Shown here piece by piece: positions 3,960-46,501 of a stretch of DNA of 64,000 nucleotides (its first letter is position 1; every line of letters begins with the position of its first letter). The stretch covers positions 96,001-160,000 of the IMG/VR virus record IMGVR_UViG_3300028025_000091, one strand, 5' to 3'. This DNA is from a virus. The notes beneath the pieces were generated by a model. The model ran no database searches and was not told the origin of the DNA. It saw only the letters and a program-made list of their open reading frames with translations. Both the position numbers and the translations under genes were made by a program.

Positions 3960-3982
3960 TATTTATAAACAAAAGAACGCTT

Positions 3983-19998: not shown

Positions 19999-20796
19999 AT
20001 GAAAAAAGTAAAAATTAGTCACGAGGTACCATTTTGCCTCTTAGAACAAAGTAGAAAATTTAACGACTACGATTATTGTTTACCCCACTTGATGGACGAA
20101 AATGAAGAATATCGCAACTTCTTCTACGAATCAAAGAAAATGGGTCGATATATTGTAATGGACAATTCACTCCATGAACTAGGTGAAGCATACAATACAG
20201 AACGTTTAATGCACTGGATTGGAGAAATCAAACCAAATGAATTCATAGTTCCAGATGTATGGGAGAACTATGCTGAGTCAGTTAGAAATGCAAAACAATG
20301 GGCTCAAGTAGAATTACCAGACGGAGTAACTAAAGTAGCAGTAGTACAAGCAAAATCAATGTATGAAGCAGGATTATGTGTTCAAGCATATCGTGATTTT
20401 GGATACAAGAAAATTGCATTTTCATATGGTGCAGAATACTACCACAGTGAAATGTGTCCACATCCAAACAAAGATTTAGGTAAAGCAATTGGTCGTTACA
20501 TGGTTTTATCAACTTTCCAAAACAATAAAACACTTTTGCCAAACGATAGAGTACATTTGCTTGGAACCGCATCCCCAATTGAATTTGGAATGTATAAAAA
20601 TATGCCATTTATTGAATCAATTGATACTTCAAATCCAATTATGGCAGCAATTGGTGAAATGCCTTATACAAAAATGGGGTTATATCAAAAACCACTTGCA
20701 AACATGAACAAATACCAAGATATAAGCATTGATTTTGTAAACGAAGATCTTATAGAATACAATGTTGAAATGTTTCGTACAATAAATGGACTCTAA
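19999..20796 (+). CDS. DpdA/TGT-like 7-deazaguanine DNA transglycosylase
   Basis: TGT-barrel-like motifs MDNSLHE, VPDV, VAVVQ, VHLLG, SIDTS; located beside queC/queD/queE. Confidence 0.65.
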   Translation: MKKVKISHEVPFCLLEQSRKFNDYDYCLPHLMDENEEYRNFFYESKKMGRYIVMDNSLHELGEAYNTERLMHWIGEIKPNEFIVPDVWENYAESVRNAKQWAQVELPDGVTKVAVVQAKSMYEAGLCVQAYRDFGYKKIAFSYGAEYYHSEMCPHPNKDLGKAIGRYMVLSTFQNNKTLLPNDRVHLLGTASPIEFGMYKNMPFIESIDTSNPIMAAIGEMPYTKMGLYQKPLANMNKYQDISIDFVNEDLIEYNVEMFRTINGL

Positions 20797-21959: not shown

Positions 21960-22128
21960 TTGTATTATAGACTGGGAATTATACCAAAAAGTTATGGCAA
22001 AGAAAAGAACAATTAAAGTATGTACCGGGATTGGATTGAATATGTTTTTTCCCGAATACATTACTATCGAATTAACCGATATAGATACAGAAATTAAAAC
22101 ACCTAAAAAAACAAAGAAAAATGGGTAG
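21949..22128 (+). CDS. Small hypothetical protein (59 aa, not in track)
   Basis: MKDSCIIDWELYQKVMAKKR...KKNG; overlaps queC stop and queD start. Confidence 0.45.
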   Translation: MKDSCIIDWELYQKVMAKKRTIKVCTGIGLNMFFPEYITIELTDIDTEIKTPKKTKKNG

Positions 22129-22606
22129 ATATATTAGCACAAAATTATTTGAAAATTATTCCGTTGCACTTAGACAATGGAGAGCATCTCACTCACATTG
22201 TGAATTGTTACATGGTTATGCTTTGAAATTCAAAGTATGGTTTGCTTCAAACGAACCGCTAGAGGAAAACCAATTAGATGACATGAACTGGATCGTTGAT
22301 TACGGTGGGTTCAAAGATGCACCTAAAGGTAATGGTTTGAAATCTTGGATGAATTATATGTGGGATCACACATTGTTGATCGAGAAGGACGATCCATACT
22401 TAGACTTTTTCGAATCGGCAGCAATGGAAGGTTTATGCGCACTTCGAGTAATGGACAAAATGGGCGCAGAATCATGTGCTAAATTAGTGTTTGATCATTT
22501 TAACGACGTTTTAGCCAAAACAGACGCCGGAAGATGCAAAGTAATTAAAGTAGAATGTTTCGAAAACGACAATAACTCTAGTATTTATGAAGAAACGGAA
22601 GCCTAA
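22121..22606 (+). CDS. queD: 6-carboxytetrahydropterin synthase
   Basis: HCELLHGY, WIVDYG, WDHTLL, GAES motifs. Confidence 0.85.
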   Translation: MGRYISTKLFENYSVALRQWRASHSHCELLHGYALKFKVWFASNEPLEENQLDDMNWIVDYGGFKDAPKGNGLKSWMNYMWDHTLLIEKDDPYLDFFESAAMEGLCALRVMDKMGAESCAKLVFDHFNDVLAKTDAGRCKVIKVECFENDNNSSIYEETEA

Positions 22607-22718
22607 ACAACTTAAACCTGTTCCTCCAATTACAATAGGACCATTTAGTCCTAGAGTAGCAAAAATTCTTACAGATGCTGATAAAGAATATCAAAAAAAT
22701 AGAAAAGATGAACAATAG
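22587..22718 (+). CDS. Small basic hypothetical protein (43 aa, not in track)
   Basis: MKKRKPKQLKPVPPITIGPFSPRVAKILTDADKEYQKNRKDEQ, overlapping queD stop. Confidence 0.4.
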   Translation: MKKRKPKQLKPVPPITIGPFSPRVAKILTDADKEYQKNRKDEQ

Positions 22719-22802
22719 CTATTACACAACAACCACCACTTTTGGTGACATTAAATTCACTTATATATTTTAACAAAATAGCGACTTTGGTGCGTTTTTA
22801 CC

Positions 22803-22812
22803 ATATGTATAA
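22803..22812 (+). promoter_or_regulatory. Class-2 (putative late) promoter motif
   Basis: ATATGTATAA just upstream of endonuclease ATG. Confidence 0.5.
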
Positions 22813-22814
22813 TC

Positions 22815-23396
22815 ATGGAACGCACCAAAATTTACTATCTACATTACGGAAATAATGTACCAATTTATGTAGGAAAATCTAATAGAATCCAAGGTAGAAT
22901 ATCTAATCATAGAAAAAATTTCGGAAAAGATATTATAGCTGAAGTGTTAGATGATGTACCTTTACATGAATGGAAGTTTTGGGAGTGTTTTTGGATAGAA
23001 CAATTTAAACAATGGGGGTATGTTCTTTCAAACAAAAACAATGGTGGTGGAGGAGCTACTAAACAAAATTTTTCCCCTATTAGAAGTCAAAAAATAAGTA
23101 AAGCTAGACTAGGTAAACCTATGCCCCATAAAGGAAAAAAATTCACAGAAGAGCATAAAGAGAAAATTAAATCTACTCGAGGTTTTCTCCAATCCCGCCC
23201 AAATACTTGGACAAATCAACCAGTTCTTCAATATAATTTAGATGGAACTTTTATAAGGGAATTTGGTTCCCAATTAGAAGCTTCGTATTTTTTACAGGTA
23301 AAAGGAGATGGAGTTGGAGCCTGTTGTAGAGGTAAACAAAAATCTGCTTATGGTTACATATGGAAATTTAAAAATATAAAACAACAAGAACAATGA
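22815..23396 (+). CDS. Free-standing GIY-YIG homing endonuclease with NUMOD3/NUMOD1-like DNA-binding motifs
   Basis: KIYYL...IYVGKS..R...H; KGKKFTEEHKEKI; PVLQYNLDGTFIREF...CCRGKQKSAYGYIWKF. Confidence 0.85.
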   Translation: MERTKIYYLHYGNNVPIYVGKSNRIQGRISNHRKNFGKDIIAEVLDDVPLHEWKFWECFWIEQFKQWGYVLSNKNNGGGGATKQNFSPIRSQKISKARLGKPMPHKGKKFTEEHKEKIKSTRGFLQSRPNTWTNQPVLQYNLDGTFIREFGSQLEASYFLQVKGDGVGACCRGKQKSAYGYIWKFKNIKQQEQ

Positions 23397-23596
23397 AGAC
23401 AAAATTTTTACAAAGTGTAGAGAGATACACAAACACGAAAGGAAAAACAGGTTACAAAGCTATTTATAGCAATGGAATTGATTTTCAAACATTATTCTTC
23501 CCAATTAGAAATGGAGTAGATGTTATTAATATTCCTTCAATTATTAACTCAGTTCAAACAATAGATGATTTAGAAGCTATTGGAGCAGAACTTTAA
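23393..23596 (+). CDS. Small hypothetical protein (cassette)
   Basis: 67 aa between junction repeats. Confidence 0.6.
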   Translation: MKTKFLQSVERYTNTKGKTGYKAIYSNGIDFQTLFFPIRNGVDVINIPSIINSVQTIDDLEAIGAEL

Positions 23597-23608
23597 AAAA
23601 CAAGAACA

Positions 23609-23836
23609 ATGAAAGAGAAACAATTAACAGCAGTAGAACAAGCAGCAGTTGCTTTAAGATTATGGTCAAATGCTTGGAGGGAATTTGATAAGACAGGTAA
23701 AAATAAACCTGAATCATTTGAAAAAGTAATTGAACCGTTTATTAAAATGGAGAAGGAGTCACTCCAGGAATCCTATGTTAATGGATATGCAAAAACCAAA
23801 AAGATGCTTATACAATTTAAACAACAAGAACAATGA
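23609..23836 (+). CDS. Small hypothetical protein (cassette)
   Basis: 75 aa; TAVE...MEKE motifs; ends KQQEQ. Confidence 0.6.
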   Translation: MKEKQLTAVEQAAVALRLWSNAWREFDKTGKNKPESFEKVIEPFIKMEKESLQESYVNGYAKTKKMLIQFKQQEQ

Positions 23837-24081
23837 AAGAAATCCTTTATTTCTCAGCCAGCTGGTGTATGCCTTGTAAACGCTTCAAACCAGTTATGGA
23901 ACAGGTAGGACAAAGTATACCTGTACGATTTGTAAATGTAGATGAAGACCCTCAATTGTCTTCCCAATACAATATCAGAAGCGTACCTACATTGGTATTT
24001 TTAAAAGACGGACAAGAAGCAGACAAATCAATCGGAGTTTTAACGGAATCACAAGTAAAAGAAAAATGGAATCTACTTTAG
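23833..24081 (+). CDS. Thioredoxin
   Basis: FSASWCMPCK, IRSVPT. Confidence 0.9.
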   Translation: MKEILYFSASWCMPCKRFKPVMEQVGQSIPVRFVNVDEDPQLSSQYNIRSVPTLVFLKDGQEADKSIGVLTESQVKEKWNLL

Positions 24082-24848
24082 GAAGAATAGAAGATTATAA
24101 CAAAACGTTACCTATTATAGAATTGTATCGTTGCGTTCAAAGCGAGGGATCTCGTTTTGGACGCCCAACGATTGCAGTTCGCACAACAGGTTGTACTCAC
24201 CGTTGCTACTTTGGTGAAGGGGGTTGGTGTGATTCTTGGTACACAAGCATCCACCCCGAGAAAGGAACATTCAACTTTAACGATATTATTCGTATTTATG
24301 ATGAAAACCCACATATCAAAGAAATGATGCTAACGGGTGGTTCACCTACTATGCATCCTAAATTGGTTAATGAATTAACACATTTTGCACATGAAAGAGG
24401 TATTCTCATTACTATTGAAACCGAAGGTTCTCATTTCCTCGCTACTGACTATCCTATATCTCTTATTAGTCTCAGTCCTAAGTTTAGCAATAGTGTTCCC
24501 GTTGTGGGTGTTGCCACGCCGAATGGTTCTATTACGGATGAGAAGATGGTTACCCAACATAACAAACATCGATTAAAATTAGATACAATCAAACAAACAC
24601 TGGAATACCACTCAGATTATCACTATAAACCAGTTTGGGATGGTACAGAAGAAAATCTAAATGAAATTGAAACATTCCGCTTAGCATTAGATATCCCTAA
24701 AGACAAAACCTATATCATGCCCGCTGGCGATACAAGAGAAGAATTAATTAAAATGTATCCACTTGTATTTGATATGTGTGCTGAAAAAGGATACAACATG
24801 ACAGGAAGAGATCATATTATTGCATTTGACACTAAAAGAGGAGTATAA
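24066..24848 (+). CDS. queE: 7-carboxy-7-deazaguanine synthase (radical SAM)
   Basis: VQSEG..GRP..VRTTGC...C...WCDS, LTGGSP, ITIETEG, SLSPK. Confidence 0.9.
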   Translation: MESTLGRIEDYNKTLPIIELYRCVQSEGSRFGRPTIAVRTTGCTHRCYFGEGGWCDSWYTSIHPEKGTFNFNDIIRIYDENPHIKEMMLTGGSPTMHPKLVNELTHFAHERGILITIETEGSHFLATDYPISLISLSPKFSNSVPVVGVATPNGSITDEKMVTQHNKHRLKLDTIKQTLEYHSDYHYKPVWDGTEENLNEIETFRLALDIPKDKTYIMPAGDTREELIKMYPLVFDMCAEKGYNMTGRDHIIAFDTKRGV

Positions 24849-46156: not shown

Positions 46157-46501
46157 ATGAATAAAGAATTTGTGCCTTATGAGTTGGCTTTAAAACTCAA
46201 ACAACTTGGCTTTGATGAGCCTTGTATTGCAACACATGGATATTTAGAATTATACATAAATACTGATGATGGACATCTTAAAGCACCACTATTCCAACAA
46301 GTATTTAGATGGTTTAGGGATGTGCATGGACATAATGGAATTGTTGAGGGTTGCAAAAAGCATGGTTTTGAATGGTGTATATTTCCTGATATGGAACATT
46401 ACATAAAACCACCAAATAATTTTAACACCTACGAAGAAGCAGAACTTGCTTGTCTTGAGAAGCTAATTGAGATTGTAGAAACTAAAAAACAAGAACAATG
46501 A
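46157..46501 (+). CDS. Hypothetical phage protein (cassette)
   Basis: EFVPYELALKLKQLGFDEPC...APLFQQVFRWFR...TYEEAE; ends KKQEQ. Confidence 0.65.
   Translation: MNKEFVPYELALKLKQLGFDEPCIATHGYLELYINTDDGHLKAPLFQQVFRWFRDVHGHNGIVEGCKKHGFEWCIFPDMEHYIKPPNNFNTYEEAELACLEKLIEIVETKKQEQ

Follow-up and report, generated by a model that had tools for sequence, protein, structure and literature searches.

A trx-linked GIY-YIG homing endonuclease gene and junction-led small genes between queD and queE of a T4-like phage

Background

The interval between queD and queE described here lies in a 64,000-nucleotide (nt) stretch of viral DNA (the window), which is bases 96,001-160,000 of the 173,789-bp IMG/VR phage record IMGVR_UViG_3300028025_000091, rated complete by CheckV. 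On the + strand, the gene order is queD, a free-standing GIY-YIG homing endonuclease gene (HEG), two small open reading frames (ORFs) at 23393-23596 and 23609-23836, the thioredoxin gene trx, and queE. Three copies of the sequence TTAAACAACAAGAACAATGAA(A), with ATGs at 23393, 23609, and 23833, link the HEG, the two small ORFs, and trx. We call this sequence the junction motif, a small ORF led by it a cassette, and a run of copies an array.

In the present study, we compared this interval with those of related phages and examined the junction motif in the whole genome and in other viruses. We consider it reasonably probable that two independent kinds of accessory DNA, a trx-linked HEG and junction cassettes that came later, share one hot spot in the que (7-deazaguanine) cluster.

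Methods

Relatives of queE were found in at least 598 stretches of IMG/VR; the best 80 (81-92% amino acid (aa) identity) were used for the interval comparison, and the interval statistics were taken over the 77 loci with both queD and queE. HEG loci number at least 144. Motif loci were collected from IMG/VR by a scan with an exact 18-mer, which gave at least 118 stretches; the counts of motif loci given below are among these 118 listed. Numbers with L (for example, L011) are our labels for individual sequences in these comparisons. Coordinates are those of the window unless the genome or another sequence is named.

Results and discussion

The left anchor of the variable interval is queD (22121-22606), a gene for a 6-carboxytetrahydropterin synthase with the PTPS fold (PF01242, 7.3e-11; TIGR03367, QueD, as the top NCBIfam match). 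The right anchor is queE (24066-24848), the gene for a radical-SAM 7-carboxy-7-deazaguanine synthase (TIGR03365, 9.7e-15), and before it lies trx (23833-24081), which encodes an 82-aa thioredoxin with CxxC (PF00085, 3.1e-17; TIGR01068, 1.7e-21) and is the resident gene linked to the HEG. The HEG (22815-23396, 193 aa) is followed by cassette 1 (23393-23596, 67 aa) and cassette 2 (23609-23836, 75 aa, ending KQQEQ*). All of these genes are on the + strand, and the profile matches bear out the order that had been proposed from the letters of the window without database searches (the sequence-only reading), namely a GIY-YIG endonuclease, two small ORFs, and thioredoxin between queD and queE. No Pfam, PHROGs, or NCBIfam match was found that would give a function to either cassette, to the ORF at 22587, or to a 265-aa ORF at 19999; the last was not taken for a DpdA.

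Junction copy 1 (23377-23398) joins the HEG stop to the start of cassette 1 by an ATGA overlap. Copy 2 (23593-23614) has one mismatch, and the ORF upstream of it stops 10 nt earlier, without reading through the motif. Copy 3 (23817-23838) joins the stop of cassette 2 to the start of trx; all three copies are on the + strand. The copies placed at 23379, 23595, and 23819 by the sequence-only reading are real and are the starts of a longer motif, with the exact 15-mer AACAAGAACAATGAA at 23383, 23599, and 23823.

The HEG product gave 25.9 bits with PF01541 (cut-off 22.6; 26.9 bits in the genome search), which identifies a GIY-YIG catalytic domain, and it matched phrog_314, 'homing endonuclease', at 6.9e-9. 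In the C-terminal part, only weak matches were seen, with NUMOD3 (16.9 bits, cut-off 20.4) and an I-HmuI NUMOD-like domain (16.6 bits, cut-off 27), and residues 91-185 gave 28.4 bits with TIGR01453, the group I intron endonuclease family, below the cut-off of 56. Of the earlier label GIY-YIG/NUMOD, the GIY-YIG part thus stands, and the NUMOD part remains below the cut-off. A sequence search of the PDB with the HEG product gave no match.

Among relatives, the queD-queE interval is highly variable. An invariant interval would have refuted the sequence-only reading; in the 77 loci, however, gaps of about 0 bp and of up to 1806 bp are found. The two genes are adjacent at 19 loci, separated by trx only (293-299 bp) at 12, by the HEG and trx at 4, by trx and another insert at 1, and by other inserts without trx at 41. 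Most trx genes in these 77 loci have no HEG upstream. The loci can be placed in a series of states: a micro-ORF with trx (empty), the HEG with trx, and the HEG with cassettes and trx.

In the genomes with trx only, queD is followed by a micro-ORF of 19-23 codons (e.g. MDNSYYTTTTTFGDIKFTYTITK), whose stop codon overlaps the trx ATG (ATGA). The corresponding micro-ORF in the window (22708-22773, + strand, 21 aa, MNNSYYTTTTTFGDIKFTYIF) is the left flank of the HEG insertion, and its DNA is 93% identical to that of HEG-less L012. In the alignment, the insertion begins on its left side precisely at the trx ATG (empty ...AACAAAATG|AAAGAA vs filled ...AACAAAATA|GCGACT). The micro-ORF itself looks like a real micro-protein gene of the que/trx cluster: the peptide is kept directly 5' of trx in 36 relatives, with a consensus of approximately M-x-N-x-YYTTTTTFGDIKFTYxITK and shorter forms such as MYTVTTTFGDYKINYIITK, and its variable sites are distributed over the three codon positions as 8/7/14.

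Orthologues of the HEG (48-100% identity) were found at 21 loci, always directly 5' of trx. This adjacency is independent of the order of the surrounding genes, which is queD-HEG-trx-queE, queC-HEG-trx-queD-queE, or queE...HEG-trx. The HEG is thus present sporadically at one fixed site beside a conserved gene, as is also seen in the alignment of empty and filled sites. At 17 of the 21 loci, there is neither a junction motif nor a cassette; together with the constant position 5' of trx, this argues for a trx-linked free-standing HEG that predates the array, and that is what the gene looks like. The last six codons of the HEG in the window (IKQQEQ*) come from junction copy 1, and the motif-free orthologues end in ...WKFKN* or ...FKNKEKIK*. 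The HEG and the ORF at 23609 share the end KQQEQ* because both read through the motif.

The window is 97.7% identical to L014 and L011 over 22708-23403, that is, over the micro-ORF and the HEG, and the right end of this tract lies at junction copy 1. In the flanks, the identity is 84-85% in trx-queE at the nucleotide level, and QueD is of another allelic type, with 40% aa identity. Such a tract is the classical signature of a recently mobile HEG and points to recent lateral movement between diverged genomes. Most likely, the endonuclease would cut HEG-less alleles near the trx start and spread by repair. An inverted repeat that flanks the HEG (22798-22809 / 23355-23366) was judged coincidental because its CATATG palindrome falls in conserved coding sequence.

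The HEG has its own expression signals. The box TATGTATAAT (22804-22813, + strand), which resembles a late promoter, ends 1 nt 5' of the HEG ATG. In the phage genome, TAT(T/G/A)TATAA occurs 29 times on the + strand vs 7 times on the - strand, and about 23 of the 29 + strand copies lie just 5' of a called gene start, with 2-22 nt from the end of the box to the ATG; large structural genes are included. A box of the form ATAT(G/T)TATAAT precedes all three GIY-YIG genes of the genome and most of the 80 HEG relatives. By analogy with TATAAATA of T4, phages of this group probably use TAT(T/G)TATAAT as their late promoter. Examples of the box in the window are found at 3960, 7112, 22804, 25069, 31807, and 42656. 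Several genes have the box only 1-4 nt before the ATG, a spacing that suggests leaderless mRNAs.

Both the box and the HEG ATG are enclosed by a hairpin (22786-22829, + strand), which was found in the inverted-repeat search as a perfect 11-bp stem (22786-22796 / 22819-22829; 100% complementary). In the RNA fold, an inner CCAU/AUGG stem pairs the start codon, and the box lies in the loop. The fold has -18.3 kcal/mol (z = -3.5), and none of 200 shuffles was as stable. A transcript begun at the box would lack the 5' arm of the hairpin. A hairpin over the start codon together with an own late promoter has been documented for T4 e, soc, 49, I-TevI, and mobE/segB (PMC3014915). By this analogy, the hairpin probably keeps the HEG untranslated on read-through transcripts, and expression of the HEG may be confined to the late phase.

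The junction motif is not restricted to this locus. In the window, the 15-mer occurs in 8 copies with up to 2 mismatches vs 0.97 expected, and none of 100 shuffles reached 8. Over the complete record, five clusters account for about 24 copies, every one of them on the + strand; the motif is thus genome-wide rather than a local duplication, as had been proposed. At least 118 other viral stretches carry it, with about 290-300 copies at up to 1 mismatch and on one strand per locus; the median spacing of the copies is 210 nt, and the median length of the downstream ORF is 64 aa.

In the motif logo, the information content goes up abruptly at -16 and drops after +5. In 64% of the copies, the ORF before the motif continues through it to the TGA of the ATGA overlap, and in the rest it does not; therefore, the constraint is on the nucleotides and not on the peptide. 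Among homologues of motif-led ORFs, the leader is either the motif itself, with up to 1 mismatch, or an unrelated sequence with 5 or more. Intermediates make up 1-4% in every identity class, down to less than 40% aa identity. From this scarcity of intermediates, it follows that the motif is kept intact or replaced and does not decay along with its gene.

The motif carries A at -3, -6, -12, and -13, positions at which A was measured to be a positive determinant of initiation in Flavobacterium johnsoniae (Baez et al. 2019, PMC6847099). Of 241 crude gene calls in the phage genome, 239 fall on the + strand, and the start regions are A-rich without a Shine-Dalgarno (SD) signal; a Bacteroidota host would fit these coding and start features. 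On the + strand, no sigma-70 promoter overlaps a motif copy (5 promoter-like sites in the region vs 6.8 expected), and no terminator-like site was found at 22500-24200. The motif logo has no dyad symmetry or attC-like structure, and the motif is absent from the inverted-repeat pairs of the region. That the motif is a start region used generally by the host, or a feature of prophages, was considered and set aside as improbable, as the first 120 cellular matches listed are single, chance-like copies scattered over all phyla, including archaea. A search for the motif string in the literature found nothing.

The neighborhoods of the arrays (within about 0.5-2 kb) contain a protein family of about 226-261 aa at 66, an ERF annealing protein at 62, and NinG at 42 of the listed loci; the family of 226-261 aa has no Pfam match. 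In L158 (417-3838), NinG, ERF, and a gene of this family lie directly upstream of the array. From the ERF and NinG counts, most arrays live in small recombinase-bearing phages. This distribution suggests that the cassettes of the 174-kb T4-like genome come mainly from a reservoir in small ERF/NinG phages.

Turnover of the cassettes is seen most directly in four genomes with 97-100% identical HEGs (the window, L011, L014, and L216), which have four different cassette sets before trx: ORFs of 67 and 75 aa in the window, ORFs of 106 and 67 aa in L014, two membrane-type peptides of 39 and 30 aa in L011, and, in L216, a decayed motif (ATG to ATA) followed by a 94-nt tRNA-like gene and a 107-aa ORF. 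The tRNA-like gene, between the HEG and the next cassette (L216:2585-2678), was called 'tRNA-Ala agc' by ARAGORN. The similarity between the window and L011/L014 is lost at 23397-23403 and regained at 23816-23818, and both breakpoints fall on motif copies. In the HEG-less and HEG-only relatives, an unrelated A-rich leader stands 5' of trx; therefore, the motif came with the cassettes, after the HEG.

The cassettes recur elsewhere. Beyond the window, the terminal array contains a paralogue of the ORF at 23609 (genome 173,095-173,307); from motif to motif, the two share 83% of their aa and 85% of their nt. L158, a contig that encodes NinG, ERF, and terminase and has no relationship to T4-like phages, carries a homologue of the ORF at 23393 (94% aa identity) in its five-copy motif array, and the cassette peptides of L011 recur at 92-100% in five other arrays. 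These recurrences, together with the four cassette sets, support the earlier suggestion that cassettes may move between arrays. The particular relationship on which that suggestion had been based, between the ORF at 23609 and the cassette at 46498, was rejected: BLASTP gave E = 21, that is, no similarity, and the real paralogue is the one in the terminal array.

The samples that contain the phage (X1-X7) are from lake or subsurface sources. In metagenomes of two other studies, the HEG (about 98-99%) and the ORF at 23393 (99%) are present, and the contigs diverge after the motif, the ORF at 23609 not being covered. A contig piece from an unrelated metagenome (X3) is 99% identical at cassette 1 and diverges after the next motif. 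Some loose contig ends are other arrays of the same genome, and we take the metagenome contigs as weak support for cassette turnover. The apparent joints 23397>23818, 23402>23815, and 23615>23819 were not counted as motif-to-motif deletions. Contigs from an RNA library (X19) are 92-97% identical over parts of the region; they may be DNA or relatives, and we did not take them as transcription.

Considering these results together, we prefer the following account. A Seg-like GIY-YIG HEG is inserted exactly at the trx start codon, between the micro-ORF and trx. Later, in one sub-lineage, small promoterless genes would have entered between the HEG and trx, each led by the 21-22-nt junction TTAAACAACAAGAACAATGAAA. 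The junction contains the stop codon of the gene before it, in an ATGA overlap, together with a start region that is A-rich and has no SD sequence. The ATGA overlap suggests translational coupling, and the junction is most plausibly a portable stop/start unit for SD-less coupled translation. Since it is identical at every cassette, it could also serve as a microhomology block, at which general recombination would replace, add, or delete whole genes. The enzymes may be of the RecA/UvsX type in the 174-kb genome and of the ERF annealing type in the small phages that hold most arrays. Cassette exchange at the motif is supported by the breakpoints and by the motif-to-motif paralogue. The HEG would stand outside this cassette mechanism; its breaks would at most raise local recombination, and they could carry the array by co-conversion. 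Such hitch-hiking of the array, possible in principle, was not seen in the compared genomes.

Several observations weigh against this account. The exact, all-or-none conservation of the motif exceeds what a good Bacteroidota start region needs and may point to a sequence-specific reader, and 21 bp is short for efficient exchange of the RecA/UvsX type. Two of the three GIY-YIG genes of the genome abut motif arrays, a hint of a link between the two kinds of DNA. The metagenome joints are ambiguous, with 21 nt only on the shorter side and the letters between not known. As for the hairpin, its 5' arm is specific to one lineage (the window, L011, L014, and L216) and is not kept in the 64-72% orthologues L044 and L076, and the changes in L014 are non-compensatory.

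The abutting GIY-YIG genes are also a point in favor of a composite selfish element, in which the HEG and the cassettes form one mobile unit and the block is copied by repair of cut HEG-less trx alleles. The sequence-only reading had likewise suggested that cleavage by the endonuclease could be a motor of recombination, or of homing of the array as a unit. The array sits between the HEG and its probable target gene, an HEG lies inside an array in L148 and L207, and homing endonucleases are described as transferring their own gene together with flanking sequence (SegB, PMC2330249). However, the array is missing at 17 of the 21 HEG-trx loci, the arrays behind nearly identical HEGs differ in all four genomes, and the high-identity tract shared with L011 and L014 ends at the first motif. 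In addition, 113 of the listed motif loci have no homologue of the phage's HEGs detectable by tblastn, so that 5 of 118 have one (the wider neighbor cluster is found at 7), and HEGs are no denser around arrays (about 0.7 per 100 kb) than in the genome (1.7 per 100 kb). We therefore set aside homing of the whole array and regard the composite element as improbable. Even less credible is an endonuclease that recognizes the junction motif itself and opens the arrays of competing phages: the HEGs do adjoin arrays at two loci of the genome and in L148/L207, but the genome would then hold about 24 self-targets, the HEG occupies the same trx-proximal site in 17 motif-free genomes, and most arrays have no HEG.

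Other explanations assign a dedicated reader to the motif. It may be an RNA operator, in which a RegA-like repressor or a RegB-like endoribonuclease of the phage or the host reads the 21-nt junction over the AUG and recombination is a by-product. This would account for a conservation far beyond the need of an A-rich start region; the motif overlaps the AUG, is unstructured and A-rich as T4 RegA operators are (PMC3014915), and is found on the coding strand only. We nevertheless think it unlikely, if slightly less so than the composite element. PF01818 (RegA) gave no match, with the control genomes equally without a match, and no regulator common to the unrelated motif phages was found, the families shared with this genome being limited to HEGs, an ORF family of 87 aa, and one of 171 aa matched in part (31 aa). 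A host factor may act instead; the first 120 cellular matches listed show only the single, chance-like copies mentioned above. In an integron-like system, the motif would be an att-type site for a dedicated recombinase. The cassettes, which are small, promoterless, and co-oriented, would agree with it, as would their constant junction and the exactness of insertions and replacements there, but we give it scarcely any credence: the complete 174-kb genome has no match to integrase, resolvase, or ERF (RecA-like genes are present), none to PF00589 (tyrosine recombinase; control positive in 14/14), and none to PF00239 (serine recombinase; control positive). The neighbor-enrichment search found no recombinase family common to the T4-like genome and the small motif phages, and the motif has none of the symmetry of an attC-like structure and is absent from the inverted repeats of the region.

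A broader and more speculative view, which is unlikely but to which we give more room than to any of these four, is that the junction is recognized by its sequence, as an RNA operator or as a recombination hot spot for phage annealing proteins, and underlies a cassette-exchange network of unrelated phages of one Bacteroidota host group. This would be an 'integron without an integrase', in which each unit would serve at once as stop codon, start region, and recombination handle, and HEG breaks, such as that at trx, would seed new arrays in core operons.

Compared with known systems, the HEG is best called, from its sequence, a further Seg-like GIY-YIG member at a new home, trx in the que cluster. 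It resembles the free-standing T4-type GIY-YIG HEGs (SegA-G; for SegB, PMC2330249) in its GIY-YIG domain and possibly in an I-TevI-like C-terminal part, where the NUMOD matches are sub-threshold here. It also resembles Seg and I-TevI genes in its intergenic insertion by a conserved gene, its sporadic occurrence at a fixed site, and an identity far above that of the flanks, and it resembles I-TevI, mobE, and segB (PMC3014915) in the own late-type box and the hairpin over the start codon. It differs from the Seg HEGs in its host gene and in its phage group, which is of the Bacteroidota type and SD-less; unlike in the T4 HEGs, the box is 1 nt from the ATG, which implies a leaderless or near-leaderless mRNA.

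For the junction, the closest parallels are the PeSLs of T4-type phages, which are intergenic and consist of a sigma-70 promoter and a terminator hairpin (Arbiol et al. 2010, PMC2839356; Comeau et al. 2014, PMC4122927). Both are short repeats between small non-essential genes in hyperplastic regions, at which insertions, deletions, and replacements break without a dedicated recombinase; the breakpoints on the repeat are represented here by the L011/L014 homology edges and the motif-to-motif paralogue. Mini-circles have also been examined for PeSLs (PMC2839356). Unlike PeSLs, the junction contains neither the sigma-70 promoter nor the stem-loop terminator, is 21-22 nt long, overlaps stop and start codons, is often read as KQQEQ*, and is common to T4-like and ERF/NinG phages. 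With integron cassettes, it shares promoterless, co-oriented small genes, a repeated junction, and cassette-wise gain and loss. It differs from integrons (IntI, attC) in that there is no integrase, the junction is not a structured imperfect palindrome, and it lies 5' of and inside the ORF start rather than 3' of the ORF. Its resemblance to the SD-independent start regions of Bacteroidia (PMC6847099) includes the four A positions, the lack of an SD sequence, and the lack of an extra AUG nearby; the start regions of Bacteroidia hosts are degenerate, whereas the junction is kept letter for letter over 21 nt across hundreds of unrelated genes. The junction is best called a variant of junction-mediated modular shuffling, apart from both PeSLs and integrons.

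What is new here is that the HEG is set apart from the cassette mechanism, that a named cassette is shared across phage families, and that the conservation of the motif was examined as all-or-none. The locus gives a series resolved to the base pair (empty, HEG only, and HEG with four cassette sets). This series separates two ideas, namely that short stop/start junctions are enough for modular exchange and that HEG breaks aid entry into core operons. The shared cassette documents gene flow between T4-like and small ERF/NinG phages, and the arrays flag a pool of tiny genes that are likely candidates for host takeover or anti-defense. Bacteroidota ignore SD sites, and the junction is a compact candidate start region for expression in this group.

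Some further features were observed in the genome and its relatives. A second GIY-YIG gene (genome 87,931-89,507, just 5' of the window) encodes 207 aa, has a late box, and directly follows a three-copy motif array. The last motif copy before it has no ATG (CAATAAA), and the same kind of decay, ATG to ATA, is found behind the HEG of L216. Over its final 1.1 kb (genome 172,642-173,789), the record contains three motif-led cassettes duplicated directly at a distance of 651 bp, with the identical ORF pairs 172656/173307, 172895/173546, and 173095/173746; it ends inside the second copy. The tandem duplication at the motif may be real, or it may have been produced by the assembly at the end of the contig.

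QueD occurs in two allelic types among the relatives, with about 40% vs 75-97% aa identity to the window, next to queE genes with 81-92%. By this comparison, queD has been replaced as a module. Overlapping the end of queD is a small conserved ORF (22587-22718, + strand) for a K-rich peptide of 43 aa (...PPITIGPFSPR.AKI...), with tblastn homologues in L067 (82%) and L076 (58%) and a 39-aa ORF of this type in L032; L067, L076, and L032 share the pattern ...PP(I/P)(T/Q)IGPFSPR(I/V)AKI.... A second hot spot for endonucleases lies between trx and queE: L216 (3424-3894) and L221-L223 have an ORF of 156 aa there, again with the late box, and an HNH-like ORF of 133 aa occupies this position in L032 (5564-5965).

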